Source: Burkholderiales bacterium (lineage in GTDB: Bacteria > Pseudomonadota > Gammaproteobacteria > Burkholderiales > Usitatibacteraceae). From it: 37,708 nt of DNA. The stretch lies in NCBI GenBank assembly GCA_043772475.1, contig JAYVGG010000255.1:1-37708 (forward strand), read 5' to 3'. The notes under the pieces were generated by a model. The model was not told the DNA's origin. It made no database searches and saw only the letters and a list, made by a program, of their open reading frames with translations. This document shows positions 1-30,451 of the stretch, one piece after another (position 1 is the stretch's first letter; every line of letters begins with the position of its first letter). A program made the position numbers and the translations under genes.

Positions 1-616
1 CGTGTAGGTCGTGCCGACCAGTGCGCCGCCGCAGGTGCCGCCGACCGAGGCGGTGAAGCCAGCGTTCGGTGTCACGGCGAAGCTGGTGGTTGCGCCAGAA
101 GCCACTGTTTGCGCGGTGCTTGGGTTGATGCTGCCGTTGGCACCAGCGCTTGGTGTGACGGTGAAGGTGACAGGGATCGCAGCGAAGCTCGCAACCACGC
201 TGCAGTTCGCCGTGATCGGATTCGTCGTGTGGGTCGTGCCCACCAAACCACCGCCGCAGGTGCCAGCGACCGATGCCGTGAAGCCTGCGTTCGGTGTCAC
301 CGTGAAGAAGGTGGTTGCGCCAGAAGCCACTGTTTGCGCGGTGCTTGGGTTGATGCTGCCGTTGGCACCAGCGCTTGGCGTGACCGTGAAGGTGACAGGG
401 ATCGCAGTGAAGCTCGCAATCACGCTGCAGCTCGCCGTGATCGGGTTCGTCGTGTAGGTCGTGCCCACCAGTGCGCCGCCGCAGGTGCCGCCGACCGAGG
501 CGGTGAAGCCTGCGTTCGGTGTCACGGCGAAGCTGGTGGTTGCGCCAGAGGCCACGGTCTGTGCGGTGTTCGGGCTGATGCTGCCGTTGGCACCAGCGCT
601 TGGCGTGACGGTGAAT
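1..616 (-). repeat. Tandem 225-nt (75-aa) coding repeats, about 2.7 copies in the window; the array continues beyond the left edge
   Basis: Unit boundaries on the + strand are 1-225, 226-450 and 451-~616, each starting cgtgt(a/g)ggtcgtgcc. The encoded unit is FTVTPSAGANGSI(S/N)P.TAQTVASGATT.F.VTPNAGFTASV.GTCGG.LVGTT.TTNPITA.CSV.ASF.AIPVT. Confidence 0.9.
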
Positions 617-3033
617 TGAGGCGCCACCACCGTCAATACCGTCGTCGCCGCGTTACTGAGCGCCACTGTGCTCGCCGAAACGTTGAACGACCCAGAAACA
701 GGCGAGTAGCTCCCTGCCGTCGAGCTTGAAACGGGAATCGTGATTACGCACGAGGACGCGCCGGTGCTGCCAAAAGGAATCGAACCCGACCCCCAGCTAA
801 CCGTGAACCCTGTCGCCAACACCCCCGCAAAGCTAACCGTAGTAGCGCACGTGTTGGTGATCGAGCCGCCAGCTATCGCTAAATTCGGCGGTAGCGCAAT
901 ACTGCCGCTCGTAAAAGTGGCAGGCGTGCCGGTAGTGCTCGAAAGCGTCACAGTAAGCGCTGACGGCGCGGTAGCGGCAACGCTCGTCGGCAAAAATGCG
1001 CTTGTCATCTCAAATGGTGCGCTAGCCACTATCGTCGCCAGCACACCAGCACCCTCCTCATCCGAGCCAAAATTTATACCGCCGTTAACCTCAATCCCAA
1101 GCGGAGGCAGTGGGGGAGTTGCTGGCGAAAGCCCGGTCAGCGTGTAGGTGCATGTGCCCGTAGCGGGGATCACTGTAGCTAAGAGCGACGTATCGGTGCC
1201 AGATGTTAAAGGTGACAGTGAAAGCGTGCCACCACACACGGATTGCGGCGTTGGTGACGTAGAATTCAGGCCAAAAAGGTGAACGCCCACCGTACCGGGC
1301 ATCGCCGCGACTGGGGAGGGATTGGTGACTTTGACCGTCAGATTTCCGCCTGGCGCGATCGTCGTTGGCGACGCGGTAAGGCCGAATACGGTGGCAGGAT
1401 TTGTCGCGACTGCGGTGAACGAAGTCGCGCCGATCGTGACCGCGCCGGACGGCACAAGATAAGCGGGGCTCACGCGGGAAACTTGGACAGCGATGCTGAG
1501 GGTACATGGCGTGAAGGTTGCACTACCGCCCGTCCAGCTAAGCGACGAGCTGCCTAGCGTGTTGCCGGTAAGACCCGCCAATCCGCAACTGCTGGGGCCA
1601 GGCGTTACGCCTCTCAACGTCACGCCGGGGGGCAGGGTGACCGACCCCGCCCCGGCGGTCCAATTGCCCGGCAAGCCGCTAGGGTTAACTAGCGTGATAG
1701 TGAGACCCGTGTTCACGAACTCAAACAGCGAGCCGGGGCCGGCGTTGGTATGCGTCACGAAGCGCGTCTGACTGAATCCCAGCTGCATGACGGGTAACCC
1801 GACAGATAGCGTTGGCAGGTTCACAATGCCAATGGGCGAGGCACTGTCCATCGTAAGCGTTCCGGCGAGGACGCCTGGAGAGCCATCGCTATCGGGCGTG
1901 ATACTCGTCACAGGGATGTCCACGGTGCAGGTTCCGTTCGCGGGAATACTGCCACCCAAGAACGCGATGGTTGTTTGCCCAATGATCGGCGTAAACGGTT
2001 GAACTGCGCCAACGGATCCACCGCAGGCGTTGACGGGCAACGACACTGGAATAATGCTGTCCGGCAGAACGACGCTGAATGAATTAATCGGCGCGGTTGC
2101 TGCGCTGGCGTTGGTTAGCGTGAGGTTCAGGATGGACTGGCCACCCGCGGTAATGACATTCGGCACAAATGCGGCGCGAAGTTCATGCGGGATGAACGCG
2201 ATGGTGATCGTCTGATTCAGCGAAATCTGAGAGCCGACTTGGTAAGGCGGGACACCGTCCCGATCACGATCGAACGAGGGTATAGCTGGGATGGATGGAA
2301 CCAATCCCGCACGGATAATCGGCAGCGTTGACGGAACCTGGGGCACAAAGGCGCCGATAGATTTGACCAACAACCGCCCCGCTACGGTAGCCAATGCGCC
2401 GGACACGTTTATGCTATCCGCAGCAGGAAACGAGGACGCGTCAAGCCCGACGTCGGCCTCGTAGGTGCCCGAAAAACTAAGGTTTCCACCGACATTGATC
2501 GTGCCCCGCGCGCCTGCGCCGCCGGGCCGAAAGGTGGTGCTGAAAACCTGAACTAAACTAAAACCCAGGGTGAGATTCCCTTCCACCGCCCCGCCAAAAA
2601 AGTTCACGAACGATTGTGTTGGCACGGGCACGTGCGTTAGGGTCCCCGCCCCTTTTAGGGTGCCGACGTTGCGATTAGTCGCGGAATCGAACGCGAAGTC
2701 GAAGCTAGCTGAGTTGCTAGGACCGGTCACACCCAAGTGAAGGATTGAACCCGAGCCTATATCCAGCGTGCCGCCGACGGTCACGCTGTTGACGGTGATG
2801 GGCGGCGTACTGGCGGGGATTGTCACTGTGCGGGGGGTGGGGATGATGACGGTATCGACGCTCTGTGGCACGCCACTCCGGCAGTCTGCCCAAGTGGCCG
2901 GTTGAGTCCACGGGCCGTCGAGCGTTGCGGTACATGTGACCGCAGTTATCTGCGCCTGTACCCCCTGCGCGCTAACGAGAAGCGCGGCAAGCCCAATGAG
3001 TTTGAATAGCGTGCGTGTGAATATGTTTTTCAT
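1..3033 (-). CDS. Large secreted repeat/adhesin-like protein, N-terminal 1011 aa only (the ORF continues past the left edge)
   Basis: ATG at 3033-3031 follows an AGAGAG-type SD. My manual translation of this minus frame stays open for all 1011 codons down to position 1, and no ORF in this frame is listed in the track, which fits a missing stop. Sec signal MKNIFTRTLFKLIGLAALLVSAQGVQA|Q. After a beta-rich N-terminal region come ~90-100 aa modules, each with a Cys pair (NACGGSVGA...ANGTCTVDIPVTS; SSCGLAG...FTPCTLSIAVQVS; SVCGGTLS...ATGTCTYTLTG; NTCATTVS...ASSCVITIPVSS). These are followed by 75-aa InlB-B-repeat-like units. The + strand ORFs at 11-2215 are antisense shadows. Confidence 0.8.
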   Translation of the reverse strand, partial: MKNIFTRTLFKLIGLAALLVSAQGVQAQITAVTCTATLDGPWTQPATWADCRSGVPQSVDTVIIPTPRTVTIPASTPPITVNSVTVGGTLDIGSGSILHLGVTGPSNSASFDFAFDSATNRNVGTLKGAGTLTHVPVPTQSFVNFFGGAVEGNLTLGFSLVQVFSTTFRPGGAGARGTINVGGNLSFSGTYEADVGLDASSFPAADSINVSGALATVAGRLLVKSIGAFVPQVPSTLPIIRAGLVPSIPAIPSFDRDRDGVPPYQVGSQISLNQTITIAFIPHELRAAFVPNVITAGGQSILNLTLTNASAATAPINSFSVVLPDSIIPVSLPVNACGGSVGAVQPFTPIIGQTTIAFLGGSIPANGTCTVDIPVTSITPDSDGSPGVLAGTLTMDSASPIGIVNLPTLSVGLPVMQLGFSQTRFVTHTNAGPGSLFEFVNTGLTITLVNPSGLPGNWTAGAGSVTLPPGVTLRGVTPGPSSCGLAGLTGNTLGSSSLSWTGGSATFTPCTLSIAVQVSRVSPAYLVPSGAVTIGATSFTAVATNPATVFGLTASPTTIAPGGNLTVKVTNPSPVAAMPGTVGVHLFGLNSTSPTPQSVCGGTLSLSPLTSGTDTSLLATVIPATGTCTYTLTGLSPATPPLPPLGIEVNGGINFGSDEEGAGVLATIVASAPFEMTSAFLPTSVAATAPSALTVTLSSTTGTPATFTSGSIALPPNLAIAGGSITNTCATTVSFAGVLATGFTVSWGSGSIPFGSTGASSCVITIPVSSSTAGSYSPVSGSFNVSASTVALSNAATTVLTVVAPQFTVTPSAGANGSISPNTAQTVASGATTSFAVTPNAGFTASVGGTCGGALVGTTYTTNPITASCSVIASFTAIPVTFTVTPSAGANGSINPSTAQTVASGATTFFTVTPNAGFTASVAGTCGGGLVGTTHTTNPITANCSVVASFAAIPVTFTVTPSAGANGSINPSTAQTVASGATTSFAVTPNAGFTASVGGTCGGALVGTTYT

Positions 3034-3176
3034 TTTGATTCTCTCTGTAAATACCATCGCTTGAGCGATTTTCCCGGTGCTAAATGTGGTTAAACCCTAA
3101 TACTGGCGCGGCGTTTGCGGCGATCTCTCGTTTTGGTTACTGGCAACTGTTTGTGGCGGTTGAGGCAGCGCCTGCC

Positions 3177-5444
3177 TCACCCCCGCCGCCTAAACGCAAT
3201 CGCACCACTGATATTGCTATTCAAGTTGTACATCACGCCCGCACCACGCCCGGTGCGGCCGGTGAAAAATCCATCAATACTGCCGCTAGGTATTACCGGC
3301 GTGCAGCTGGGGGCACAGCTGATGGTGAGCGTGCCTGCCGGGGCGACGTTGGCGATGGCGGCACCGGCGTAGGTGGCGAAATACTGGGCGCGGTAAATAG
3401 GCACGTTGCTCGCGGCGGCGTTCCACGTCTGCCCGGCGATGGTGATGTTGAGGCTGGTGTTGACGGTTCGGGCGGAGAAATTGGCGCTGAGTGCGGCGCT
3501 ATTAAAGGTGCCGACGTTGCCATTGAGATCGGTGGGGCGCGTTGAGCCGATTACGTCATAGGTTGCGCTGCCGGTAAGCGGCAAGGCGGTGGGGCCGTTT
3601 TGCGCGCTTGAAAAAATGTAGTGGAGGCTGCGATTAGTGAGTGCTACCGCTTGCCCACCCACGGTGGCGCTGCCGCCAGACCAGCGCCCCCAGATTAAGC
3701 CGGTGGCAGCATCGGCACCGTTTTCGAGCACGGTGGCGCTACCCTGCGCGTAGGTAGCGTGGCCGACGATATCGGGGCCACGCGCGATGGGGCCCGCAAA
3801 CGCGGTGGCGCGCCCCTCGGCATCACTGGTGACTTCTTCAGGGCGGTTTACGGTGGCGTAGCTTCGGAAAAAACTGGCGTTGGCGAGCGTGTTGCTTGGG
3901 TCAGAAAGTAAGCCATTGCGGAAGGTGGCACCGATGTTTTGGACCGGGCCTTGGAAGGCGATGACGCCATTGATGGTTTGGGCACCTTGGCCGCAGGCGC
4001 AATTGGTGCGGTCACTAAAGCCGTAGCCGATGAGCGCACCATTGAGTGCTGCACCGGTGAAGCCGCCTTGCAAGGTGCCAACCAGCGCTGGGTTGGTAGC
4101 CGAGCTTTGGCCGGTGGCATTGGTGATGGTGAGCCGACCGCCGCCGGTGTAGGCGAAAAAGCTATTGAGCGAGAAGGCGACATTGCTGGCCGTGAGCGTC
4201 CATGCGCCAGCGGGCACGGTGGCGCTCGCGGGCATCGAGACACCGATGATCGCGTTTAGCGTGCGCGCGCTGAAATTAACATTGAGCACCGAATTAGTGA
4301 GCGCACCCACCGTGCCGAATTGATTGGTGGGGCTGGTGGCACCGGCGCGCGTGTAGCTCACGGTGCCGGTTAAGACATCGGACAAATAGCCCGCGTAGCC
4401 CGCGCCGCCGTAGCCCCAGTGAATCGGGGCGGCCACGCTGCTACCGGCACCGGTTGCGCCGTTCCAGCGGCCGATGACGATGCTATTGCCGTTGCCAATA
4501 TCAATACGCTGCACGTCGGCCGCCGTGCCGCCAGCGATGGCGGCGTTGAGACCGCTCTGATCGCCCGCATAGCCCACCACGCGGCGCAGGTTGCTGCCGT
4601 CAAGCGTGAGGCCGTCTCGCCCGGCTAAGCTTGCGATGGTGCCGCCATTTCCGGCGATCACGGCTTGCTGGAGGCCGAGCGGGTCGGTGGGGCTGTAAAG
4701 ATCGAGGGGATCCACCAGCACGTACCCTAGGCCGCTACCGCCGATCACGATTGCGCGTCCCACGGCATCCGGGCCGCGTGGCGGGATGTTTGCATCGCCT
4801 CCGTCATCAATCGCCTCGGCTTCCCCCGGCCCGACCATGATGCGCCCAGCTTCGAGCATACCGGGCGGGGTGGGTATAAATTGTGGCGCTTGACCATTGA
4901 GCACTTGCACGGTGTCGTTGGGGCCGGTAATCAGCGGCGGAAAATTGGTGTTGTTCGACAACACCTCATGGCTACCTTCGACGGTGTGATTGATGGTGCC
5001 GCCATCATCGGCGATCAAGATATTGAATGAGCCGCGAATGCCGACCGTGGCGGCGCGCGTTTTCATTTTGAATTTGTTGGCGTCGTTGCGCGAGAGTAGT
5101 TTGGTAAAGCTACGCAAGGTGCCGCGCACGAGATTTAAGATCGCCCCTTCGTCGCCATCGACTTTCTGCGCGTAGCGCTCAACGATAAGCTGGCTACTGG
5201 AGCGTAGCGAGAGCTTGGCTTTATCAACCATATCGAGCTGGGCTGCGCCGTTGGCACCAGTGGTGATGATGTCGCCTGCGGCAACCTCGGTGCCGGGCGT
5301 GGCCTGGCTGGTTTTGTCACCGCTTTTGAGCGTGACCTCGCCAACCACGTGGGTGAAGGTGCCGCTCTTGGCGAAAGCAGGGAGCGTCAGCGCTGTCAAT
5401 ATCAGCACGCTAAAGAGGCAGAGTTTTTGGATAAGATTTTTCAT
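3177..5444 (-). CDS. Secreted FecR-domain protein with two C-terminal TbpB/hemophilin-like beta-barrel modules (candidate Slam/T11SS cargo)
   Basis: 755-aa ORF with a GGAG SD before the ATG. Sec signal MKNLIQKLCLFSVLILTALTLPAFA|KSG contains no lipobox Cys. Residues ~28-140 match the FecR pattern (GEVTL....ATPG..V..GD.I.TG.NG.A.L.......L...S.L.......L.L..G..R). Residues ~322-499 and ~583-753 repeat a module: GRW.G... Y.G...G.(V/A)(S/T)Y...G.T.PT...G.VG.....L..NFSART(L/V)N ...W.. ASNV... G...GGF(T)G....GA...Y.......I.G.IAF. Confidence 0.75.
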   Translation of the reverse strand: MKNLIQKLCLFSVLILTALTLPAFAKSGTFTHVVGEVTLKSGDKTSQATPGTEVAAGDIITTGANGAAQLDMVDKAKLSLRSSSQLIVERYAQKVDGDEGAILNLVRGTLRSFTKLLSRNDANKFKMKTRAATVGIRGSFNILIADDGGTINHTVEGSHEVLSNNTNFPPLITGPNDTVQVLNGQAPQFIPTPPGMLEAGRIMVGPGEAEAIDDGGDANIPPRGPDAVGRAIVIGGSGLGYVLVDPLDLYSPTDPLGLQQAVIAGNGGTIASLAGRDGLTLDGSNLRRVVGYAGDQSGLNAAIAGGTAADVQRIDIGNGNSIVIGRWNGATGAGSSVAAPIHWGYGGAGYAGYLSDVLTGTVSYTRAGATSPTNQFGTVGALTNSVLNVNFSARTLNAIIGVSMPASATVPAGAWTLTASNVAFSLNSFFAYTGGGRLTITNATGQSSATNPALVGTLQGGFTGAALNGALIGYGFSDRTNCACGQGAQTINGVIAFQGPVQNIGATFRNGLLSDPSNTLANASFFRSYATVNRPEEVTSDAEGRATAFAGPIARGPDIVGHATYAQGSATVLENGADAATGLIWGRWSGGSATVGGQAVALTNRSLHYIFSSAQNGPTALPLTGSATYDVIGSTRPTDLNGNVGTFNSAALSANFSARTVNTSLNITIAGQTWNAAASNVPIYRAQYFATYAGAAIANVAPAGTLTISCAPSCTPVIPSGSIDGFFTGRTGRGAGVMYNLNSNISGAIAFRRRG

Positions 5445-5462
5445 TGTGGCTCCGGGGTGGCG

Positions 5463-6860
5463 CTATTGAATTTCGCAACGAATCGCCGACGACACCTCGT
5501 GGCGGCTGTAGTCGTAAATGGCAATGTTTGAGCTATTGCGCGAGGCCTGCCATTGCGCGTGCAGATTGCACTTGGGGGTGAAGCGCCAATTGGCACCGAG
5601 TGAAAAATCGGCCAGACGATCACGGCCAAATTCGATCTCGGTGGCACGTGCAAAGGCTTTGTCGTCGTTACGCTTGGTGTAGCCCAGCACGGTGAAAAGA
5701 TTGAGCTTTTCACTCATGCTGACTTGCCCGTAGGCACGCGCACCCGAGACGCGCTTCGATTTATCGGATTCGCCATCGGCTAACGTGCGGAGCGCGCGGT
5801 CCCGGCTGGTGTAGCCGCTTAGCTGGATAAGTGGCGCGCTGGCACCATCAAATTGGCGCAGCCAACCCGCCGAAAGTTGATTGGCGTTGAAGTCTTCGAT
5901 GTTGTTATCGGGGAAGCGAATGCGTAGGCTGGTGCCGCCGAAACTGAGCTGGTTTTGTGGCGTAATCGCGTAGCGGTACTCGGCCCCAACACTAGCACTG
6001 GTGCGGTCGTTGGTGGGTTTAGGCGTGCCGGGGGCATCGGCTTTTTGTTTGTACGCAGCGCCACCGGCATTCAACGTGACGCGGTGTTGCTCACGCGTCC
6101 AGATGGCCGCGGCGCGCAGGTCGGCATTGAGTAAATTAAAGAGGGTTTCTTTTTGGTAGGCACGCCCGCGCCCTTCAGCCGTGAGCTGGGCGGCCCACTC
6201 GGTTGAAAGCGGCATCCGGTAATCGCCACCGAGGCCGGCTGCAAAAAATGCCGCGCGGCGTTTAATGGCGTTACCCGTAGGCGATACTCCGGGAATCGCA
6301 AAAGCCGACTCAACCGCCGAGGTGAAATCAACCGGCACCCCGGTTACGTTGGTGTCGTAGCCTAGCTGCGTCTCGCCCCAGATAGAAAGTTTCTTGGCCG
6401 AGCTAGCGCGCTTTTCGCGAATGGCGGTGAGGTAGCGCTCGATGGTGGCGCGCGCAGCCTCGGGTGGGTTGGCGCGTTTGAGCGATAGGAGCGTCGATTC
6501 GGCGAGATCCATCGAGCCGGCGTGGAAGTAGGCGCGGCCCAAGTCAAGCCTCGCCCCGGCGTGCTTGGGCACGGCGGCCAGCACACGCTCGAGCGCCATA
6601 ATCGCCTCGGTGTATTTCAGGCTATCGAGTGCGGCAACACCGAGCAGGTAGTTGAATTGGGGGTTATCGAGGTTTTTGTCTTGGGCCTCGGCCAGAATCA
6701 CGAATGCTTGTTTGGCGTCACCCTTGGCGAGCAGAGCTTCTGCTTCACCGATTAGCTTGGGCTGCGCCCAGGCGGGCACACAAAACGCCGCAAACACCAA
6801 TAGCAGCGCGGGTTTCCACTGCATTGCGCGTGTTTTTTTATTGCGCTTATCTATCACCAT
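5463..6860 (-). CDS. Outer-membrane TPR plus beta-barrel protein, Slam/DUF560-like (surface lipoprotein assembly modifier / T11SS translocator)
   Basis: The ORF runs 5463-6902. I prefer the ATG at 6860 (AGGAAGAG SD 4 nt upstream); the ATG at 6824 is an alternative. Signal ...MQWKPALLLVFAAFCVPAWA|QP. The N-terminal ~120 aa are TPR-like helices (AEALLAKGDAKQAF...NYLLGVAALDSLKYTEAIMALERVLA...RLDLGRAYFHAGSMDLAE). These lead into YLTAIREKR...SIWGETQLGYDTNV and an amphipathic-strand barrel that ends SRNSSNIAIYDYSRHEV. The ~465 aa size and the architecture match Slam proteins as I remember them, and the gene stops 18 nt upstream of the start of the candidate cargo gene. Confidence 0.6.
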   Translation of the reverse strand: MVIDKRNKKTRAMQWKPALLLVFAAFCVPAWAQPKLIGEAEALLAKGDAKQAFVILAEAQDKNLDNPQFNYLLGVAALDSLKYTEAIMALERVLAAVPKHAGARLDLGRAYFHAGSMDLAESTLLSLKRANPPEAARATIERYLTAIREKRASSAKKLSIWGETQLGYDTNVTGVPVDFTSAVESAFAIPGVSPTGNAIKRRAAFFAAGLGGDYRMPLSTEWAAQLTAEGRGRAYQKETLFNLLNADLRAAAIWTREQHRVTLNAGGAAYKQKADAPGTPKPTNDRTSASVGAEYRYAITPQNQLSFGGTSLRIRFPDNNIEDFNANQLSAGWLRQFDGASAPLIQLSGYTSRDRALRTLADGESDKSKRVSGARAYGQVSMSEKLNLFTVLGYTKRNDDKAFARATEIEFGRDRLADFSLGANWRFTPKCNLHAQWQASRNSSNIAIYDYSRHEVSSAIRCEIQ

Positions 6861-7127
6861 TTGTCTCTTCCTGTTGTGTTCGCGTGGTGGCGATTCAGGC
6901 ATCCCGGTGTGCGATTCGATGAGCCGCCGCTAGCATATGAAAGACTAAGCATAGCAAGTTTGGGCTTCCTTACCACTTGTAAAATCACACGCACGCGCCA
7001 TAGCACCGAATATATTCCCCACGGCCTTACAATTAGACCTAGTTCAGCTCGACATCGCTATACCGCGATTACGGTATTGCGCTGGCAGCCTGGTTTATTT
7101 CTTTCGCCCCACTCGCAAGGCCCCATC

Positions 7128-7907
7128 ATGACTGACACCGCCGAACCTATCCTCGACATCACCCATCAAGGCGGCGTAACCCGCCTCACCCTTAACCGCC
7201 CCAAGCAGTACAACGCGCTCTCAAAGGCCATGCTGGACGCGCTGCATGAGGCTTTAGATGCGATTGCCCACGACACCAGCGTGCGGGTGGTGGTGATCGC
7301 GGCCCATGGCGGCGCATTTTGCGCGGGGCATGATTTGAAAGAAATGCGCGGCGCAAATGACCCCGCTTTTGTTTCGCAGCTTTTTGCGCGCTGCTCGGCG
7401 CTGATGCTAAAAATCGCCAAGCTGCCCGTGCCGGTGGTAGCTGAAGTGCAAGGCATGGCCACCGCAGCCGGGTGCCAGCTGGTGGCGCAGTGTGATTTGG
7501 CGGTGTGCGCTGATACGGCGCGTTTCGCGGTATCGGGTGTGAATTTGGGGCTCTTTTGCTCAACCCCTGCGGTGGCGCTCTCACGTGCAATCTCGCGGAA
7601 GCGCGCGGCGGAAATGTTGATGACCGGCGAATTTATTGATGCCGCTACCGCGCTCGATTGGGGCTTGGTGAATCGTGCGGTGCCTGCGGCCGCGTTGCGG
7701 GCTGAAACGCTAAAGCTCTGCGAAACCCTCAAAGCCAAGCCACGCGCGGCGCTTGCGATGGGCAAGGCGCTTTTTTATCGGCAGTTGGAGATGGGTATTG
7801 AGGCCGCGTATCAAGATGCGTCGGCAACCATCACGTGCAACTTTGCGATGCCGGAGGCGGTGGAAGGGGTTACTGCGTTTTTGGAGAAGCGTAAGCCGGT
7901 GTGGTGA
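7128..7907 (+). CDS. Enoyl-CoA hydratase/isomerase (crotonase) family protein
   Basis: In-frame ATG at 7128 gives MTDTAEPILDITHQGGVTRLTLNRPKQYNAL. Crotonase motifs are present (AFCAGHDLKEM, G.ATAAGCQLV..CDL). The upstream 89 codons of the listed ORF cross the divergent promoter region. Confidence 0.85.
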   Translation: MTDTAEPILDITHQGGVTRLTLNRPKQYNALSKAMLDALHEALDAIAHDTSVRVVVIAAHGGAFCAGHDLKEMRGANDPAFVSQLFARCSALMLKIAKLPVPVVAEVQGMATAAGCQLVAQCDLAVCADTARFAVSGVNLGLFCSTPAVALSRAISRKRAAEMLMTGEFIDAATALDWGLVNRAVPAAALRAETLKLCETLKAKPRAALAMGKALFYRQLEMGIEAAYQDASATITCNFAMPEAVEGVTAFLEKRKPVW

Positions 7908-11701: not shown

Positions 11702-12895
11702 ATGAAAGTGTATCTCGTCGTTCTGCTTGCTATTTTATCGAGCATTGGCCAACGTGGCGGCAAGGTGTTGACCTCGTTGTCCGCGCTCGAAATCGGCGCG
11801 AGCGCGTTTACGGTTGGTGTGCTGGCGGCTACCTATGCGGTCTTTCCGCTGCTGCTCGCGGTGGTTGCGGGGCGCATCTCGGATCGGCTTGGCGTGCGCT
11901 TCCCGATCATGCTGGGGGCGCTCGTGATGGCGCTGGGGATTTTTATTCCGGCCATCAATACCGGGAGTCTCGCCCTACTTTTTCTGTGCCCGGCACTCGC
12001 GGGCTTGGGACATATTTTTTTGCACGTCTCAATTCATAACGCGGTCGGCGCATTTGGGGACCGGTCTGATCGCGCCAAAAATTTCGGCACCTTCGCGCTC
12101 GGCGCGTCCATCGCTACCTTTATTGGCCCAGCACTCGCTGGTATCGCGATTGATCATCTTGGCTATCGCCCGGCGTTTCTGATTATTGGTGGGTGTGTGT
12201 TGGCGATCACGGTACTGGTGCTGGTGTTTCCGGGCATCGTGCCCGCGCATGTTAAGCACCACGACGAGAAACGTGGCGCGCTTGATTTACTGCAAAGTGC
12301 CGGGCTCAGACGCACGCTCATCATGAGCGGTGTTGCACTCACGGGGATTGAGCTTTTCTCGTTTTACTTTCCGGTGTATGGCAAATCAATTGGGCTATCT
12401 GCGACATGGATCGGGCTCGTGATGAGCGCCTACGCAGCGGCGGCGTTTGTGGTCAGGCTTGGTATGGGCCGTCTTGTCCTACGCTATACCGAGATTGGCG
12501 TTCTCACGTTTTCGCTGTTCGTGGCCGCCCTCACCTACGGGCTGATGCCGTTTTTTACCAATCCCTACGCGCTCTCGGCGGTGGCGTTTTTGCTGGGGCT
12601 GGGGCTTGGTAGCGCGCAGCCGCTCACCATCATGCTCACCTACAACCACGCGCCGCCGGGGCGCTCGGGCGAGGCGCTGGGGCTCAGGCTCACCGCCAAT
12701 AAATTTACCCAATTGCTCGTTCCGCTTGCATTCGGTAGCATAGGCACAGCACTTGGAGTCGCGCCAGTGTTTTGGGCGAACGCGGTGTTTTTGTTGATCG
12801 GTGGTACTGTTTCGTATCTCAGTCGCAGCACGCTACACGAAGCGCCCGTTGATGCCGCGCCCAAACCGATTGACGAACTGGAGGAGACAAAATGA
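11702..12895 (+). CDS. MFS transporter
   Basis: 397 aa and about 12 hydrophobic segments. Contains the MFS loop motif GRISDRLGVR. Confidence 0.8.
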   Translation: MKVYLVVLLAILSSIGQRGGKVLTSLSALEIGASAFTVGVLAATYAVFPLLLAVVAGRISDRLGVRFPIMLGALVMALGIFIPAINTGSLALLFLCPALAGLGHIFLHVSIHNAVGAFGDRSDRAKNFGTFALGASIATFIGPALAGIAIDHLGYRPAFLIIGGCVLAITVLVLVFPGIVPAHVKHHDEKRGALDLLQSAGLRRTLIMSGVALTGIELFSFYFPVYGKSIGLSATWIGLVMSAYAAAAFVVRLGMGRLVLRYTEIGVLTFSLFVAALTYGLMPFFTNPYALSAVAFLLGLGLGSAQPLTIMLTYNHAPPGRSGEALGLRLTANKFTQLLVPLAFGSIGTALGVAPVFWANAVFLLIGGTVSYLSRSTLHEAPVDAAPKPIDELEETK

Positions 12896-13242
12896 ACGCG
12901 AATAAATTATGGTGCGGCCTACTCTTGAGTGGCGCAATGTCAGCCGTGTACGCGCAAACACCCGCCGGTGACGTCGGTGCCGGCCAAAAGGCCTACATGA
13001 AAAACATGTGCGACGCCTGCCACGGCACGGCGGGACAAGGCGGCGACCGGGGTGCTGGCCCCAAGATCGCACCTAATCCATTTCCCTTCGAAGCATTCAA
13101 CATGCAGATGCGCCGCCCACGCGCGGTGATGCCACGTTACAGCGAAGAATTTTTAAGCGCCAAAGACATGGCCGACATCTACGCGTACATGCTGTCGATA
13201 AAAGAAGGGCCGAAAGCCAAAGATATTCCGCTGCTTAAATAA
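12892..13242 (+). CDS. Periplasmic class I c-type cytochrome
   Basis: 116 aa. Signal peptide ...GAMSAVYA|QTP, a single CDACHG heme site, and a distal VMPRY Met. The start overlaps the MFS stop (ATGA). Confidence 0.8.
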   Translation: MNANKLWCGLLLSGAMSAVYAQTPAGDVGAGQKAYMKNMCDACHGTAGQGGDRGAGPKIAPNPFPFEAFNMQMRRPRAVMPRYSEEFLSAKDMADIYAYMLSIKEGPKAKDIPLLK

Positions 13243-13307
13243 TAGGCAATGGCTGAAAAGCCGCGTGGATGCTAGGGTTTGACGTGTATTGCGCCCTGCA
13301 TGACAGG

Positions 13308-15212
13308 CTAGCGCCCTTGACACACCGCATCCACCAGCGCCGGTGCACCACCTTTCACGACGGCCAACGCGCGCTTGATCGCGGCGTTGAGCTTGGCCGG
13401 GTCTTCAATCGGGCCCTCTGACCACACCCCTTGTGCCTCGGCGAGTTTGGCGTAGTTGATCGGTGGTTTGTCGAGCACATTGCCGATCCAGGCCTGATCG
13501 GGGCGGCGGTTGTGAACCGATGCCATACGTTGTAGGTGCATGACTTCCTGATGGTAGCCACGATTGTTATGCATCACCATCAGCAGCGGAATCTTGTGAT
13601 ACGCCGCCGTCCACAGCACGCCGGGCGCGTACATCAAATCGCCGTCGGGTTGAATCGTGACCGAGATGAGGCCCTTCGCTTTATTGGCGAGTGCTGCCCC
13701 AACAGCGGCAGGTGCCGCGTAGCCCACGCCCTGCCCGCCGGAACCACCGAGCATGTGGTGATAGTCCGTCGTCGGCCATAGATTGCGCGGCCAGCCTAGG
13801 CGGTCACTCACCACGAGCGACCAAGGTTCATTCTTGATTACATCGTAGAGCTCCATCGACAAGCGCGCGGTTGAGATCGGGCGTAAATCCCAGCCGACGG
13901 CGGCGGCTTCGCGGATGCGCGTGTTGGCGCGCTTTCGATCTTCCTTAAATTTATCCGTGCGCGCCATAAGCACACTGCGACGCGCATCGGTCATCACTTT
14001 TTTGATTTCTTCGGTGAGCGCCGGGAGGCTCGTCTGCGCGTCGCCATTGATCGGGAGATCGACCGGCATGAAGCGCTGGTGATCTTGATAGTTCGAGCGG
14101 ATGTACACGTCCTGCATCGAAATGTTGATAATTTTTACGCCCTCTTTGCCCACGAAGCGCTGCTCTTTGTGCGGGTCTGAGAAAGTATGGAATTGCCCCC
14201 ATGAATCGGCAACTTCGAGGAGCAGCACCACGTCCGCGTTGCGAACAAGGTTGCGCCGCGCTTCGGTCTGGCTTAAGTGGTGCGTATTGGGGAAATTCAT
14301 CCGGCCACCGATATCGATCACCGGCGCATTGAGCGATTCGGCGAGCGCTATCATCGCTTTCACACCATCCTGATTTCGTACCGCGCGATCCGCGATGATG
14401 ACCGGTGCTTCTGCATTTACGAGCATCCGCGCGGCTTCTGCGAGGGCGTTGCGATCCCCCTGCGATGGTTTCGAGAGCGTCAGTTTGGGAATCTTGAGCG
14501 CGTCATCGTGGATCGCGTCTTCCTGCAAATCAATATCGGCCGAGATCAGGACCGGCTCCATCGGCGGGGTCATGGCGATTTTGTAGGCACGCACGGTGGA
14601 TTCCGCGAAGTGCTGAAGCGAGGCCGGGTAATCGTCCCACTTCACAAAATCTCGCACCATCGCGGCGACGTCCTGCACAGAGTGATTCCATTCCGTGCCG
14701 GGGCGGCGCTTGTTCGCGTCCAGTCCATTGCCCGCGAACATCATAACCGGCACACGATCCACCCACGCGTTGTAAATCGCCATTGCCGCGTGTTGCAAGC
14801 CCACGGTGCCGTGCAGCATCACGCCCATTGGTTTACCTGCGGCCTTTGCGAAGCCGTGTGCCATCGCGACCGACGTTTCTTCATGCAGACAAGTGAGTAG
14901 CTCAGGCGCTTTATTGCCGCCATAGTTAACGAGTGATTCGTGCAGGCTGCGAAAGCTGGAGCCCGGGTTCGCAGCAATGTATTCAAGATCGAGCTTCTTG
15001 ATAACGTCCACCATAAAATCTGAGCCGGGACGCGCAATCATAAGATCGCCGGGGTGGGGTTTTTCTTTTTTCTTCGCGGCTGGCTTTGCCTCGGGTGTGG
15101 CGGCCTCGGCAGCAGGGACCAGCGCAGCGGCGGCACCGACGGTGGCAACAGCAGACTGCATGAAGGCGCGGCGATCAAGGCGCGTAGCGCCGCTGTCTTT
15201 TTCGTCTGTCAT
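13308..15212 (-). CDS. Thiamine diphosphate-dependent enzyme (acetolactate synthase-like fold) with a twin-arginine export signal
   Basis: Start at ATG 15212 (MTDEKDSGATRLDRRAFMQSAVATVGAAAALVPAAEA). A Lys/Pro/Ala linker follows, then the ThDP N-domain (catalytic Glu in CLHEETSVAMAHGFAKA) and the C-terminal ThDP motif (GGQGVGYA...QPDGDLMY...LLMVMHNN). Confidence 0.75.
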   Translation of the reverse strand: MTDEKDSGATRLDRRAFMQSAVATVGAAAALVPAAEAATPEAKPAAKKKEKPHPGDLMIARPGSDFMVDVIKKLDLEYIAANPGSSFRSLHESLVNYGGNKAPELLTCLHEETSVAMAHGFAKAAGKPMGVMLHGTVGLQHAAMAIYNAWVDRVPVMMFAGNGLDANKRRPGTEWNHSVQDVAAMVRDFVKWDDYPASLQHFAESTVRAYKIAMTPPMEPVLISADIDLQEDAIHDDALKIPKLTLSKPSQGDRNALAEAARMLVNAEAPVIIADRAVRNQDGVKAMIALAESLNAPVIDIGGRMNFPNTHHLSQTEARRNLVRNADVVLLLEVADSWGQFHTFSDPHKEQRFVGKEGVKIINISMQDVYIRSNYQDHQRFMPVDLPINGDAQTSLPALTEEIKKVMTDARRSVLMARTDKFKEDRKRANTRIREAAAVGWDLRPISTARLSMELYDVIKNEPWSLVVSDRLGWPRNLWPTTDYHHMLGGSGGQGVGYAAPAAVGAALANKAKGLISVTIQPDGDLMYAPGVLWTAAYHKIPLLMVMHNNRGYHQEVMHLQRMASVHNRRPDQAWIGNVLDKPPINYAKLAEAQGVWSEGPIEDPAKLNAAIKRALAVVKGGAPALVDAVCQGR

Positions 15213-23389: not shown

Positions 23390-26300
23390 TCAAAACCCAG
23401 CCACAGGCTCGCTATTGTCGTCCCACACATTACCAACACCACGGAGCGGGTTAACCGTGAAAGGATACTTGGGGCCCAAGGCTGCGGCGCGGCCAAAGCG
23501 GTTGTGGCTAAACACGCTCGCGGTCGCGTCGATATGCACGGTGTAGCCGCCGCCATCGAGCCAATTACCGGTGATGTTGAGTCTCGTTACGTTATCGCCA
23601 CTGATTGAAATCGCATTGGACGCTGCTGCGGGTGCCACGATGGTGTTGCCGCGCAGCGTGATATTGCTAATGGCCGCACTGTAAATCCCGCCGATGGCAG
23701 CACCGCTGTTGTTGTGGAGGTAGGACTGCTCTACACGCGTGTCGTACGCGGTGGCGATGGCGTTGCCGCACCCGCTAATGTCCGCGCGCAGCACAGTGAG
23801 GGACGAGCCCAGAATACAAAACCCACCCCCGCCGCCGGTGATGGTGACATCTTCAAAGCGCGTGCCGGTGACACCGTCCGCGATCACCACCAGCGCCCAA
23901 TTGTTGGCGGTGATTGCGCTTCCTTTGAAGGTCACGTTGTTTGCGGTCACGAACACGGGCTCGGTGATCGCGACGGCTTCAATCACGCTATTAGGTATAT
24001 CAATGGTGGTGTTGCCCGCATAGGGCGTGAGCGTGATACCGGCCGGCACGCCGGTGTTGGCGCGCGTGGGCTTACTTGCCCGTGGCGCATCGGCGGTGAT
24101 GACACTGCTCTGCGCCGAGGCAACACGTGCCGTGCCGAGTGGATTGGCCGCGGTCACCACGACGCGCACCGCTACCCCCTCCTCGGCTGTTGTGAGCCGC
24201 TGTGTTGGCGTGGTGGCGTTCGCGATATCAACACACGCATTGTTCGCATCACAGCGCTGCCATTGGTAGGTGATGGTGGGTGCGGGCTCACCCAGCCATT
24301 TTCCCGCCGTTGCGCTGAGCGTTGCGTTGACTTGCGCGGTGCCGGTGACGATGGGGGCGACGGTGTTGGCGGGCGCGCGCGGCACCGCTGCCACGGGTGT
24401 CATGCGGACAAAGCTGATGCTCCACGGCGCGCTCGTGATCGACACCTGCTGGTCGCTGACGGTACTACTGGTCGCCGCCACATAGCCATCGGTGGTGCCA
24501 TCGTAGGTGTAGGGGGTGGCGCTTGCCATCGCGTTGCAGTCGGCGAGTGCGAGCGTGGTGGTCGCGGTTTTGTCGTCGGAAAGATTGATGACCGCAGCGA
24601 TGATTTCACCGCTGGCGCTATCTTGTGAGCCGAACACCGAGACACTGCCATCGCCGCTACCGAGCGCAGGTAGAACGCGCGTGTCAATCGAGGTATCCCC
24701 AAAGCCGCGCCCTTCACCATCGAAATTACGAAACCCTTTGAACGCCCAATAGAGTGGCGTTTTTTCGGCGGGGTAGGTCCAGTAGTAGGCGGAATCCACA
24801 CCGGGGAAGCGCTGCCCACCCACGGTGATGGCCTGACCAAACCGACCCAGCGTTTCCGCCTGCGCGACCGCACCGCTCATGTGGCCTTCAGCCCCAAAGC
24901 TGTATTCACCAATCGAGATGCCGAGCCCCGGATAGTTGTCTTTGATCCAGCCTTGCAAGGTTGGCAGTAAATTCACCGGCGGATTGCCAACCTGCCCGTA
25001 CCAAGATTCGTCAACGTAGCCCGCATCCCACAACGAGCGCGTGGAGCGGACGCGTAGACGTGACGTGGCAAGATCAAGCCTGCCACCATAAACGCCGCTG
25101 CCCTGCGGGTAATAGTGCGTGTCAAAAAGATCAAGGAGTTTGATGCCCGTTGCGGTCTCATGGGCTTTGAGCTCACGCAAATACCACGGAGCCATATCAC
25201 CACCGACCAACGCACGGTCGGAGCCCGCACCCCCCGCCCAGAGTGCATTGTTATTGTCGTAATCACTAAAGCGCAGCGCGAATAACCCCGATGTGGCAGG
25301 CCCTGCGATTTTTGCGTTCGGCTCCGCGCGGCGGATCGCGCTCGCAAAAGTTTTGTTGTTCTCCACAAGCTCTGCCGCACGTAGCCGCGTCGTGCGCACA
25401 TCGCGGTGCGTGTCGCCCCAGAGATCGGGCTCGTTATCGAGAATGTAATGGTCAATCCGCCCGCCTTTCGCACGCGCGGCCTCACGTAGCGCGCCCACCC
25501 ACGCGGCCGCGTCTGCGGGCGTGAAGGCAACACTCGTCTGCGTTGGCGGCTGCGTGACCGTGAGATTGGTGCCCGCCGGGCTGCGGCCATTGCCGGCATC
25601 CGGGCGGTAGATGTCAGTGGCATTTTGCGCGCCATAAATACCTACCGGGAATCCACTCGCGCTCGCATCCTTCGCAACCCAGCCGAGTGTGGGGATGCTC
25701 ACCGCACTCCCCACCGCGTGTTCGGCATTGTCCGCGACGTACTGCTGCCAAGTGCGGTTGGTGCGAATGTTCTCAAAGAAATAATCGTTGGCGGTATTCC
25801 ACGCGCTGATCGCGGGGTTATAGCGCGATGTTGGGTTACCACCCCAACGACGGCTGGTAGCCCCTATCGACCACTGCGCGGGACTACCGTTGGCACCCGC
25901 AAAAAAATCGGTAACGTCGGCGTAGGCGATGCCGTAAATGCGCGGGCTGATTGGCACCGTCTGCGCACACTGCAAGGTGGCACTGGCCGTGGCGCGCGTC
26001 GGCGTGGTGGAGGCACCCGCGCGTGTCGGGGCTTGCGGGGTAACGGTGGGTGCGCCGCTCACGAGCACGTCGTTCACACGCACGAGCGAGCGTGCGGGCC
26101 AGTCGCTGGTTGCTTGCAATTGCAGGCCGTCAAAATTGAGCCCGCTTGGGTTCAAGACTTCCATTGGAATCGTGATGCTGATGAAGCCCGCGCTGTCTGG
26201 CACCAGCCCCGCAGTCGGCACCGCGTGCGAGAGAAAAATCCCGCCGTAATTATCTTGGCGCGTCAACGTCACGTTGAGAAAATTGGTCGTCGTCGAGAGC

Positions 26301-26596
26301 GGCGTCATCTTGAACGAGAGCGTTGCGGTCGGCGTGATGGAGGCGACGGCACTGGTTGCCAAAAACACGCCACCCCATTGCCCAAGATCGTTAACCAGCG
26401 CGCCGTTTGGCTCGTTTGCCGGTGCCGCACAGTTGGCCCCGCAATGCCAGCTCCAGTTTTGCCAGCCGGGGGCGAAGCTGCCATCGCGGTACACGGTCAC
26501 ATCGGCGGCGTGGGCAAGCGTTGGATAAAGTAGCGATAGACTGAGGACAGCGAATGCGCGCGGTGCGGCGCGCAGAAAATTCAATATCGGTGGCAT
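23390..26596 (-). CDS. Secreted multidomain glycoside hydrolase-like protein: N-terminal CBM-like region, GH44-like catalytic domain, Ig-like domain, C-terminal right-handed beta-helix
   Basis: 1068 aa. Signal ...LSLSLLYPTLAHA|ADV. GH44-like motifs ISPRIYGIAY, RRWGGNPTSRYN, HYILDNEPDLWGDTHRDV, DTHYYPQG. Ig-like segment P.VTGTAQVNATLSATAGKWLGEPAPTITYQWQRC. Beta-helix repeats (NVTFKGSAITANN.., VTITGGGGG.., NITLRGNTIV.., LNITGNWLDGGG). Confidence 0.65.
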   Translation of the reverse strand: MPPILNFLRAAPRAFAVLSLSLLYPTLAHAADVTVYRDGSFAPGWQNWSWHCGANCAAPANEPNGALVNDLGQWGGVFLATSAVASITPTATLSFKMTPLSTTTNFLNVTLTRQDNYGGIFLSHAVPTAGLVPDSAGFISITIPMEVLNPSGLNFDGLQLQATSDWPARSLVRVNDVLVSGAPTVTPQAPTRAGASTTPTRATASATLQCAQTVPISPRIYGIAYADVTDFFAGANGSPAQWSIGATSRRWGGNPTSRYNPAISAWNTANDYFFENIRTNRTWQQYVADNAEHAVGSAVSIPTLGWVAKDASASGFPVGIYGAQNATDIYRPDAGNGRSPAGTNLTVTQPPTQTSVAFTPADAAAWVGALREAARAKGGRIDHYILDNEPDLWGDTHRDVRTTRLRAAELVENNKTFASAIRRAEPNAKIAGPATSGLFALRFSDYDNNNALWAGGAGSDRALVGGDMAPWYLRELKAHETATGIKLLDLFDTHYYPQGSGVYGGRLDLATSRLRVRSTRSLWDAGYVDESWYGQVGNPPVNLLPTLQGWIKDNYPGLGISIGEYSFGAEGHMSGAVAQAETLGRFGQAITVGGQRFPGVDSAYYWTYPAEKTPLYWAFKGFRNFDGEGRGFGDTSIDTRVLPALGSGDGSVSVFGSQDSASGEIIAAVINLSDDKTATTTLALADCNAMASATPYTYDGTTDGYVAATSSTVSDQQVSITSAPWSISFVRMTPVAAVPRAPANTVAPIVTGTAQVNATLSATAGKWLGEPAPTITYQWQRCDANNACVDIANATTPTQRLTTAEEGVAVRVVVTAANPLGTARVASAQSSVITADAPRASKPTRANTGVPAGITLTPYAGNTTIDIPNSVIEAVAITEPVFVTANNVTFKGSAITANNWALVVIADGVTGTRFEDVTITGGGGGFCILGSSLTVLRADISGCGNAIATAYDTRVEQSYLHNNSGAAIGGIYSAAISNITLRGNTIVAPAAASNAISISGDNVTRLNITGNWLDGGGYTVHIDATASVFSHNRFGRAAALGPKYPFTVNPLRGVGNVWDDNSEPVAGF

Positions 26597-26884
26597 GGTG
26601 GACTCCTGACGTCGGATGCTGCGTGCGACATTTCTCCCTACGCATTGCCATTACCGGATCGCGGTGTTCAAGGCCGCGAGCCTTAAGTAGGGTGCGCGGG
26701 GAGAACAAAAGTTCCGAAGACACAAAAATGGCGCGTTCGTGTCACAAATAATTCGGCACGTAAATTGCAGCCATATGCCCAAACACCTCGCCGTTATTGG
26801 GCTTTTGGCCAGTCATGCTTGTTGGGTCGGGTGCGGCAACAACGTGGGGGCGTTGTCATCATCACCATGCACTAAACTACCCAC

Positions 26885-27742
26885 ATGAAAATTCCCAAGC
26901 GCTTGGAACCCTTGCTCGAAGACGGCCTCATCACGAGCGTGGTGCGTCAGCTCATGAGCGGTAAAGAGGCGATGGTATTTGTGGTGCGCTGCGGCGACGA
27001 TGAGCCCGCACGCTGTGCCAAGGTCTACAAAGAGGCAAACAAGCGCGCGTTTCGCCAAGCGGTGGATTACACTGAAAATCGCAAAACCAAAAATTCACGC
27101 CAAGCGCGCGCGATGGCAAAAGGCTCGCGCTACGGGCGTGAATCGCAAGAGGCTGCTTGGCAGAGTGCTGAAGTCGATGCGCTTTATCGTCTCGCGGCTG
27201 CCGGTGTGCGGGTGCCCAAGCCCTACAATTTTCACGAGGGTGTCTTGCTCATGGAACTGGTGGCGGATGCCGATGGCAATGCCGCACCGCGCTTAAATGA
27301 CGTGGAATTTTCCGAGGAAATCGCGCTGAAATACCACGAGATGCTGATCCGTGAAGTGGTGCGAATGTTGTGCGCGGGCATTATTCATGGCGACTTGAGT
27401 GAATTTAATATCTTGGTTGCAGCCGATGGCCCGGTGATTATTGATTTGCCGCAGGCAGTTGACGCCGCCGGTAATAACCATGCAGAAGCCATGCTGGATC
27501 GCGATGTCGGCAATTTACGCAATTACTTCGGGCAATTTGCGCCAGCACTCCTCACCACCGCCTACGCAGCCGAAATCTGGGCGCTCTACAAGGCCGGCAC
27601 GCTCACGCCAGAATCCGCACTCACCGGGCGATTCCAAAAGAGCCAGAGAAAAGCCGATGTGGGAGCACTCTTGCGCGAGATTGAGGACGTGGAGCTGGAA
27701 GAAAAAGCGCGCTTAATGCGAATGAGCGAAAAACGAGATTGA
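26885..27742 (+). CDS. RIO1-like atypical protein kinase (PA4780-type)
   Basis: 285 aa. Motifs SGKEAMVFVV...AKVYK, LMELV, and IIHGDLSEFNILV...VIIDLPQAV (catalytic and metal-binding loops). Confidence 0.75.
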   Translation: MKIPKRLEPLLEDGLITSVVRQLMSGKEAMVFVVRCGDDEPARCAKVYKEANKRAFRQAVDYTENRKTKNSRQARAMAKGSRYGRESQEAAWQSAEVDALYRLAAAGVRVPKPYNFHEGVLLMELVADADGNAAPRLNDVEFSEEIALKYHEMLIREVVRMLCAGIIHGDLSEFNILVAADGPVIIDLPQAVDAAGNNHAEAMLDRDVGNLRNYFGQFAPALLTTAYAAEIWALYKAGTLTPESALTGRFQKSQRKADVGALLREIEDVELEEKARLMRMSEKRD

Positions 27743-27856
27743 ATTGGCAAGTAAGCCGAAAGCCCGCACCGTTATTGGGTTTCCGGGCATTGCTGTAAAT
27801 CAAAAAACGAACGCCACACACCCGCAGATTCACGCGTAGAATGGTTCGTCATAATT

Positions 27857-29083: not shown

Positions 29084-29097
29084 TAGTTTTTCTCCCA

Positions 29098-29127
29098 TAA
29101 AAAAACCCGCCAGCTGGCGGGTTTTTT
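29098..29127. terminator. Bidirectional rho-independent terminator between the desaturase and rpmG
   Basis: aaaaaaaa-CCCGCC-agct-GGCGGG-tttttt. A GC stem flanked by an A-run and a T-run. Confidence 0.85.
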
Positions 29128-29147
29128 GTTGGAGCCAAACTTAAAAA

Positions 29148-29201
29148 TTACTTAAGCTTTGTTTCCTACTTAAGCTTTGTTTCCTACTTAAGCTTTGTTT
29201 C
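29148..29201 (-). repeat. Perfect 18-nt tandem triplication of the rpmG 3' end including the stop codon
   Basis: Minus-strand reading is GAAACAAAGCTTAAGTAG | GAAACAAAGCTTAAGTAG | GAAACAAAGCTTAAGTAA, which is ETKLK* three times in the rpmG frame. Confidence 0.95.
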
Positions 29202-29339: not shown

Positions 29340-29355
29340 GATGGTTTCCTTTGAA

Positions 29356-30386: not shown

Positions 30387-30451
30387 GGCGGGTCTCGGTT
30401 AAAATGCGTGGAGTTTGAAGACTAAATGTTAGCCCACTTCTCGGAACCCCC

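Follow-up and report, generated by a model that had tools for sequence, protein, structure and literature searches.

A putative type XI secretion pair of environmental Burkholderiales: a Slam-like outer-membrane protein beside a FecR protein with predicted TbpB-like lobes

Described members of the DUF560 family of outer-membrane proteins, Slam1 and Slam2 of Neisseria and NilB and HrpB of Xenorhabdus (PF04575), are Sec-exported and combine an N-terminal tetratricopeptide repeat (TPR) domain with a 14-strand barrel; each is encoded directly beside a protein that ends in a handle and an eight-strand barrel. The type XI secretion system (T11SS) formed by these proteins has so far been tested only in animal-associated bacteria, where the cargos are lipoproteins or hemophores serving metal or haem piracy, immune evasion and host colonisation. 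Surveys recognise ten DUF560 clusters. Experiments have addressed animal-associated cluster 1 alone, and marine cluster 3 has been studied bioinformatically; the rest of the environmental part of the family was left uncharacterised and without known cargo (PMC8406197, PMC12282271). Here we describe two adjoining genes that probably form a type XI, Slam-like secretion pair belonging to that environmental part. They lie near the left end of a window of 37,708 nucleotides, the whole stretch of DNA analysed, from an uncultured soil or freshwater Burkholderiales bacterium of the Usitatibacteraceae (assembly GCA_043772475.1, contig JAYVGG010000255.1). The reading is drawn by analogy with the translocator/cargo mechanisms of Slam-TbpB and HrpB-hemophilin (PMC5449769, PMC8406197, PMC12282271). 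The product of gene 1 is predicted to have the TPR domain and 14-strand barrel of a Slam, and the product of its neighbour, gene 2, the handle and eight-strand barrel of a Slam cargo. Unlike the described Slams, gene 1 belongs to a very divergent branch, its copy in the window falling below PF04575 detection; its family comes from uncultured soil and freshwater Burkholderiales, Usitatibacteraceae, Nitrosomonadaceae and Rhodocyclaceae rather than from animal-associated bacteria; and no TonB-dependent receptor, TonB, metal or haem genes lie near the pair.

Three genes follow one another on the minus strand. Gene 1 (5463-6860, 465 residues) encodes the divergent DUF560/SlipAM, Slam-like outer-membrane protein, and gene 2 (3177-5444, 755 residues) a secreted, non-lipidated protein made up of a FecR domain, a linker and two predicted TbpB-like lobes. 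The 5' part of gene 3 (1-3033) spans 1011 codons, open to the left window edge, and encodes the start of a giant secreted repeat protein of hypervariable sequence. The order, strand and positions of the three genes, and the gaps of 18 nucleotides between genes 1 and 2 and 143 nucleotides between genes 2 and 3, are as the original prediction gave them. The reading frame of gene 1 remains open as far as 6902, and the ATG at 6860 is preceded by the ribosome-binding site AGGAAGAG; a GGAG ribosome-binding site precedes the start of gene 2. All three products carry Sec type I signal peptides (ending in AWA before QPK in gene 1, AFA before KSG in gene 2 and VQA before QIT in gene 3), and their translations, read directly, show no lipobox cysteine in any of the three. 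A scan of positions 2900-7400 found no promoter-like sites, and terminator-like sites there were no commoner than in shuffled sequence. A 6-bp hairpin immediately behind the stop codon of gene 2 lacks a T-run and was not called a terminator. The left edge of the window falls in a tandem repeat of gene 3 (1-615; 225 nucleotides or 75 residues, 2.7 copies, 89% identity). A public contig whose genes are identical ends at this point too, which makes the repeat the probable cause of the assembly break.

The assignment of gene 1 draws on its predicted fold and on the sequences of its relatives. In an AlphaFold2 model with a mean predicted local distance difference test score (pLDDT) of 83.5, a signal peptide of low pLDDT (about residues 1-33; 6762-6860) is followed by helices at residues 34-155 and then by 14 long strands. 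The helices correspond to a putative periplasmic TPR domain (6396-6761, minus strand like all features of the three genes; TPR_19, 1.3e-12; TPR_16, 5.7e-10), and orthologues match TPR_Slam weakly, the best at 1.1e-4. The strands make up a predicted β-barrel (residues 157-465; 5466-6392), which is delimited both by the model and by the PF04575 coverage seen in orthologues. The succession of signal peptide, about 120 residues of TPR-like helices and C-terminal barrel had been proposed from the start, and it is borne out. The proposal that gene 1 is a DUF560 protein fared well for the family and less well for the window copy, which gives no PF04575 match of its own. Matches to PF04575 were obtained for 29 of 34 aligned homologues; all ten orthologues that were checked singly (53-59% identical) score 24.7-28.6 bits, above the curated Pfam cut-off of 22 bits, and their matches jointly span nearly the entire Pfam model. 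When a profile of the gene 1 family was compared with the outer-membrane protein of a distant locus (L090; related loci are cited by L numbers), the two aligned over 410 columns with an hhalign probability of 100%, E 4e-52 and 30% identity, and that relative itself matches PF04575 from position 5 to 285 of 288 (39.5 bits). The two motifs that the original prediction likened to neisserial Slam1 (E163, G167, D169, N171 and S440...E455) are the columns invariant in the gene 1 family, and they recur in this SlipAM-positive relative. Close homologues of 440-495 residues number in the hundreds in betaproteobacterial metagenome bins. We regard gene 1 as a divergent yet genuine member of DUF560/SlipAM, with a Slam architecture as judged from the predicted fold.

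Searches of the Protein Data Bank (PDB) bear on what else gene 1 might be. With Foldseek the top template modelling scores (TM-scores), 0.62-0.71, belong to the 14-strand barrels OmpG and CymA, and FadL stands high by E-value; a profile search with the gene 1 family returned generic TPR proteins only. PelBC and BcsC also occur among the Foldseek matches, and weak C-terminal matches were found to EpsL (2e-8, far below its cut-off), TIGR03016 and BBP2_2. These would fit a TPR-porin exporter of polysaccharide, or an outer-membrane protein associated with PEP-CTERM, of the PelB, BcsC, PgaA or EpsL type, with gene 2 as a periplasmic or secreted accessory, as would the GT1-like gene that follows gene 2 in some ten related loci (see below). 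The barrels of PelB and BcsC have 16 strands. The gene 1 model has 14, as against 16 for PgaA (Grossman et al. 2021), and the TM-scores of PelBC and BcsC reach 0.26-0.38 as against the values for OmpG and CymA. Moreover, the TPR region of gene 1 is short, the orthologues and relatives match SlipAM over its full length, the invariable partner is TbpB-like and not a synthase, and no polysaccharide synthesis genes are present among the window reading frames scanned. Strand number, TPR length and partner gene argue against an exporter of the PelB/BcsC/EpsL type, and we consider exporter and PEP-CTERM assignments together to be very improbable.

The product of gene 2 gave an AlphaFold2 model of mean pLDDT 79.3, in which a β-sandwich, a disordered stretch and two sheet-plus-barrel units succeed one another. 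Its signal peptide (residues 1-25; 5370-5444) has no cysteine at +1, and none of the 33 aligned homologues has one there; in these the signal peptide ends in an alanine-rich site that is followed by a conserved SG-x-F. The β-sandwich (residues 28-190; 4875-5363) is of FecR type by both Pfam and Foldseek: PF04773 matches residues 59-156 with 32.2 bits against a cut-off of 24. The disordered linker (residues 203-253; 4686-4838) has a pLDDT below 50 and falls in variable, gap-rich alignment columns. Beyond it lie an N-lobe (residues 259-500; 3945-4670), modelled as a handle sheet and a barrel of about eight strands, and a C-lobe (residues 507-755; 3180-3926), with handle strands at 507-611 and a barrel, again of about eight strands, at 626-753. 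The lobes are homologous to one another (31% identity over 191 residues, E 4e-13) and, on the evidence of this sequence similarity, are internal duplicates. Thus the original prediction was right that gene 2 does not encode a lipoprotein and that its passenger is a FecR domain.

The predicted structure connects the lobes with known cargos. When the gene 2 model was searched against the PDB with Foldseek, TbpB and LbpB structures took the whole of ranks 1-25, with E-values from 1.6e-8 to 1.3e-5 and a probability of 1.0. At ranks 26-29 came the C-terminal signalling domain of PupR (6ovk_R) and the anti-sigma factor BDI_1681 (4m0n), these FecR-type matches having target TM-scores of 0.50-0.53 and root-mean-square deviations of 3.0-3.7 Å. 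Hemophilin/HphA (E about 3e-4) follows further down, and fHbp appears at rank 50. Whole-chain TM-scores are low, probably reflecting a multi-domain query whose lobes are differently oriented. The original claim of TbpB-like modules at the end of gene 2 is upheld by these matches and by the two handle-plus-barrel lobes of the model; at the level of sequence PF01298 is silent. The signal peptide of gene 2 is of type I and lacks a lipobox, which groups the protein with the soluble subclass of T11SS cargos and not with the surface lipoproteins. We conclude that gene 2 encodes a soluble, Sec-exported protein that, to judge from the predicted fold of its lobes, has the bilobed layout of TbpB with a FecR domain in place of the lipidated anchor peptide.

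Public annotation names gene 2 a "FecR domain-containing protein," and this label, together with the Pfam match, could suggest a conventional FecR regulator of iron-starvation signalling whose neighbours are unrelated to it. The architecture is not that of such a regulator. The protein has neither an anti-sigma domain for the cytoplasm nor a transmembrane helix; its FecR domain, beginning at about residue 28, comes straight after a signal peptide that can be cleaved, and some 500 further residues are predicted to form TbpB-like lobes. Nor does the window hold the genes that such a regulator would serve: no TonB-dependent receptor or transducer, extracytoplasmic function (ECF) sigma factor or iron-uptake gene was found by Pfam among its ten largest open reading frames beyond 12 kb or in the domain list of the shared contig, as had been noted originally. 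A classical FecR anti-sigma regulator is excluded by the domain architecture and by this lack of sigma factor and transducer genes among the frames scanned, and a regulatory role of the conventional kind is hardly credible.

The pairing of genes 1 and 2 is conserved. One genome per species was scanned for 185,579 species; 104 relatives of gene 2 were found and 79 loci kept. The hosts are Burkholderiales, Usitatibacteraceae, Rhodocyclaceae and Nitrosomonadaceae, with two Lysobacter bins in addition, and one of the genomes, that of Betaproteobacteria bacterium GR16-43 (CP019169), is complete. Wherever one of the 79 loci extends far enough upstream, a homologue of gene 1 lies immediately upstream of gene 2 and on the same strand. 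A C-lobe profile was also searched against 1.84 billion representative proteins, clustered at 50% identity. It matched 985 clusters at E <= 1e-3, of which 532 reach E <= 1e-10. The lobe-bearing proteins range from 123 to 3351 residues and carry one to nine copies of the lobe, usually at the C-terminus. Ten distant members were sampled, and six have an N-terminal FecR match; none of 11 proteins scanned has a Pfam match to the lobe. Where the neighbourhood of such a distant protein (526-2333 residues) could be read, a gene for a TPR outer-membrane protein lay directly upstream, in five cases of five. Two of the five upstream genes match SlipAM strongly and one faintly, one shows TPR only, and one is cut by a contig end and was not looked up. 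The pairing in all testable loci and in distant relatives therefore marks a SlipAM protein and a FecR-lobe protein as a widespread, conserved two-gene module. The original prediction had asked for the conservation of the trio to be tested; the pair kept its order wherever the DNA permits a test, including the five distant relatives, and the giant third gene is kept as a position but not as a sequence.

Some of the related loci depart from the simple pair. Two full pairs stand in tandem in L053 (1657-5388 and 11247-14920), with a gene of the tail-bearing kind described below in between, and two further bins each have a second copy of the pair on another contig (L027 with L030; L022 with L035). 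In a Usitatibacter-like clade, about ten loci (L041, L043, L049, L061 at 12389-13603, L066, L070, L074, L075, L082 and L083) have an additional GT1-like gene of about 405 residues (starting MRVLFGWELGE...), which separates gene 2 from the tail-bearing gene. It may be a fourth component, perhaps one that glycosylates the giant protein. A CHASE2-guanylate cyclase gene adjoins the distant SlipAM and FecR-lobe pair on the opposite strand in L090 (9780-12008) and L091 (3916-6144), a hint that in some of its members the module acts on a sensor in the periplasm.

The cyclase gene in these two records would fit an alternative in which genes 1 and 2 form a sensing device spanning the outer membrane and not a plain secretion pair: the lobes would bind a ligand outside, the linker would pass through or alongside the gene 1 barrel, and a periplasmic FecR domain would relay the signal to an inner-membrane partner such as a CHASE2 sensor, with gene 3 a mere neighbour. 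Also in its favour are the match of the FecR fold to PupR's signalling domain, which is periplasmic, a disordered linker whose length of about 50 residues suffices for crossing the outer membrane, and a weak match of residues 27-97 of gene 2 to the LapA retention module NF033682 (E 2.7e-4). FecR-domain proteins are also paired with CHASE2 kinases in Burkholderia operons (PMC5192318). Yet neither the window nor those close relatives that were examined showed a gene for a CHASE2 protein, kinase, cyclase or sigma factor, threaded topologies are not described for T11SS cargo in the literature searched, and the constant orientation and adjacency of the tail-bearing genes are not what random neighbours would show. 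We think a sensor of this kind unlikely.

Gene 3 is hypervariable. Its visible part has two DUF7933 matches in Pfam, a homologue search produced one weak match among 5.8 billion proteins, and an exact-match search of metagenome contigs with its 5' end found no matches. The genes at this position in related loci are equally large and have unrelated bodies, such as RCC1 propellers or immunoglobulin (Ig)-like repeats; gene 3 is thus conserved as a position and not as a sequence. What these genes share, wherever their 3' ends are visible, is a choice-of-anchor D (ASH/HYDIN-type) Ig domain and then a conserved tail, with the consensus ...SNAxGSPxxVxLSGTG-C-R-x-F-S-x4-R-x5-C-x(0-3)-stop (GC-x14-C). 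The tail is 18-20 residues long and has no hydrophobic stretch, and in 33 of 40 instances its two cysteines have a spacing of exactly 14 residues. Those 40 were found among 1036 stop-to-stop open reading frames of at least 300 residues, taken from all six frames of the related loci; every one lies on the strand of the pair and is adjacent to it or one gene away. Most tail-bearing genes stand just downstream of gene 2, and the others lie past the GT1-like gene or just upstream of gene 1. Examples are L002 12327-16409, L013 12445-17511, L048 12324-15587 and L043 13315-22157 (two genes).

Six tail-bearing proteins were scanned against NCBIfam and Pfam. The only domains reported were choice-of-anchor D and Ig-like ones, all ending before the tail, and no curated model of a sorting tail (PEP-CTERM, GlyGly-CTERM, C-terminal domain (CTD) of the type IX secretion system (T9SS) or LPXTG) matched these six relatives. 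The last Ig-like domain of the L048 protein (residues 995-1067) gave a sub-threshold match to NCBIfam OS_HP2, a (seleno)protein family (5.3e-10, 39.5 bits against a cut-off of 100). That gene 3 might encode a second classical T11SS cargo was considered and rejected, since its full-length counterparts end in an Ig-like domain and short tail and not in an eight-strand barrel. A functional link between gene 3 and the pair is plausible. The pair is present without a tail-bearing gene in about six loci; it is therefore the core of the system, and the tail-bearing gene a frequent companion.

By analogy with the described translocators, the gene 1 product would sit with its 14-strand barrel in the outer membrane and its TPR domain in the periplasm. 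The gene 2 product, exported by Sec, would be recognised through its C-terminal handle-plus-barrel lobe, which is the presumed targeting domain for the translocator, and would be moved until both TbpB-like lobes reach the cell surface. The layout of TbpB, in which anchor, disordered linker, N-lobe and C-lobe follow one another, would be preserved in gene 2 with the FecR β-sandwich standing in for the lipid anchor. In all characterised contexts the FecR fold is a docking module outside the cytoplasm: in PupR and FecR, in LysM-FecR proteins with their CHASE2 kinase, and with the CHASE2 cyclase beside the distant pair. From this we infer a docking role for the FecR domain of gene 2, which may attach the cargo to a partner. 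It may be a retention or relay domain in the periplasm, the linker of about 50 residues then being threaded through the membrane, or it may be an effector domain displayed at the surface. Gene 3 would encode a giant, variable surface protein that is likely a client or partner of the pair. The two-cysteine tail of its counterparts could serve as a docking or sorting tag, bound by the FecR domain or by the lobes.

A more far-reaching proposal can be built on the tail. The pair might be the conserved machinery of an undescribed sorting or anchoring system, in which the Slam-like barrel would set the FecR-TbpB-like protein on or across the outer membrane, the FecR domain taking the part of the lipid anchor and perhaps staying periplasmic behind a threaded linker. 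That protein would recognise the GC-x14-C tail as a disulfide loop and so export or dock the choice-of-anchor D giants, with CHASE2-wired signalling from surface to periplasm in other lineages. We hold this proposal to be doubtful.

Several observations weigh against a Slam-like pair. The window copy of gene 1 has no PF04575 match even at E <= 1 and matches TPR_Slam at E 0.1 only. No Slam structure is among the PDB matches of the gene 1 model, so that the fold search points to a 14-strand barrel and not to Slam specifically. The lobes of gene 2 are in a similar position. No match to TbpB_B_D (PF01298) or to lipoprotein C domains was obtained with the whole of gene 2, with the isolated lobes (Pfam, E <= 10) or with ten distant lobe-bearing proteins; phmmer searches of the lobes against the PDB gave nothing significant, with hemophilin at E 0.81 only, and a 14-sequence C-lobe profile found no sequence match there. 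The lobes thus lack sequence similarity to TbpB_B_D, to hemophilin and to any PDB chain, and their kinship with known cargos depends on predicted structure. Neither in the window nor in close relatives does a TonB-dependent receptor or a metal or haem uptake gene accompany the pair, which sets it apart from most characterised T11SS loci. Finally, the half-dozen loci that have the pair and no tail-bearing gene within about 8 kb are of Usitatibacter, and although gene 3 of the window is in the companion position, its C-terminus lies beyond the contig end, where a tail is not visible. Despite these points the Slam-type reading of the original prediction is supported.

The surroundings of the pair are partly conserved as well. 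An ECH_1 enoyl-CoA hydratase gene (6861-7907, plus strand) is divergent from gene 1, an arrangement kept in several related loci (its counterparts include L002 7468-8271 and L006 7378-8178), and a Liv-type ABC transporter operon is often next after the locus. Recurrence of these neighbours therefore places the module at a conserved chromosomal position, with no obvious mobile element. Further to the right, the guanine-plus-cytosine (GC) fraction of the window falls from about 0.60 to 0.53-0.55 across positions of about 26000-34000. An open reading frame in this region (27857-29083, plus strand) joins a fatty-acid desaturase domain (residues 22-245) to a piece of an ISL3-family transposase (residues 283-407). 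The drop in GC and the ISL3 piece suggest an insertion sequence or a foreign segment. A minus-strand gene at 23390-26596 encodes 1068 residues, in which a domain of glycoside hydrolase family 44 and a stretch of right-handed β-helix were recognised; its product is probably a secreted polysaccharide-degrading enzyme unrelated to the gene pair.

For the environmental branch of DUF560, the pair supplies a concrete proposed class of cargo: non-lipidated proteins with one to nine TbpB-like lobes behind a FecR domain, the lobe being represented in about 1,000 clusters at 50% identity. It raises the question of whether the lipid anchor of a Slam cargo can be substituted by a protein domain, or part of the cargo kept back in the periplasm by one. 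A second question is whether the two-cysteine tail of the neighbouring giants is a new tag for sorting or docking.

Among known cargos the closest comparison is with TbpB and LbpB. Like them, the gene 2 product is predicted to be bilobed, each lobe having a handle sheet and an eight-strand barrel, with a disordered tether ahead and the lobes arising by duplication. Unlike them, it has no detectable sequence similarity to the family, PF01298 being silent; it has no lipobox or lipid anchor and carries a FecR β-sandwich instead; and no cognate TbpA-type receptor accompanies it. With hemophilin and HphA it shares the character of a non-lipidated, Sec-dependent cargo and, by prediction, the C-terminal eight-strand barrel. 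Hemophilins, however, are single-lobed, bind haem and are encoded beside TonB-dependent receptors, often with a separate FecR regulator gene, whereas in gene 2 FecR is fused to the cargo itself.

The fusion sets gene 2 apart from what has been reported. About ten cargo architectures are listed in the T11SS survey, none with an N-terminal FecR domain. In the T11SS literature searched FecR figures only as a regulator with a gene of its own close to hemophilin loci, or as an entry in tables of co-occurrence, and no work joining surface lipoprotein assembly (Slam) with a FecR domain was found in it; the combination is thus unlike the described Slam loci, as the original prediction had supposed. 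Within that literature the FecR-lobe class of cargo and the tail are undescribed. The β-sandwich itself is familiar. FecR, PupR and the LysM-FecR proteins, one of which is paired with a CHASE2 kinase in a published operon (PMC5192318), have the same fold and the same Pfam family (PF04773), and in them it is an extracytoplasmic module for protein docking. Gene 2 differs from these proteins in having no anti-sigma domain, transmembrane helix, STN-like subdomain or LysM, and in the fusion to predicted Slam-type cargo lobes.

The giant neighbours invite comparison with sorting systems. PEP-CTERM/exosortase, T9SS CTD and LPXTG systems resemble the present loci, where hypervariable choice-of-anchor D bodies end in one short conserved C-terminal element and conserved envelope proteins are encoded alongside. 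The GC-x14-C tail differs from the tags of those systems in its length of 18-20 residues, its two cysteines and its lack of a hydrophobic helix, and no sortase-like enzyme is encoded nearby. Taken together, the locus is a variant of a known secretion system, distinguished by a fused FecR domain, by a wide environmental distribution and by a possible new C-terminal tag on the adjoining proteins.

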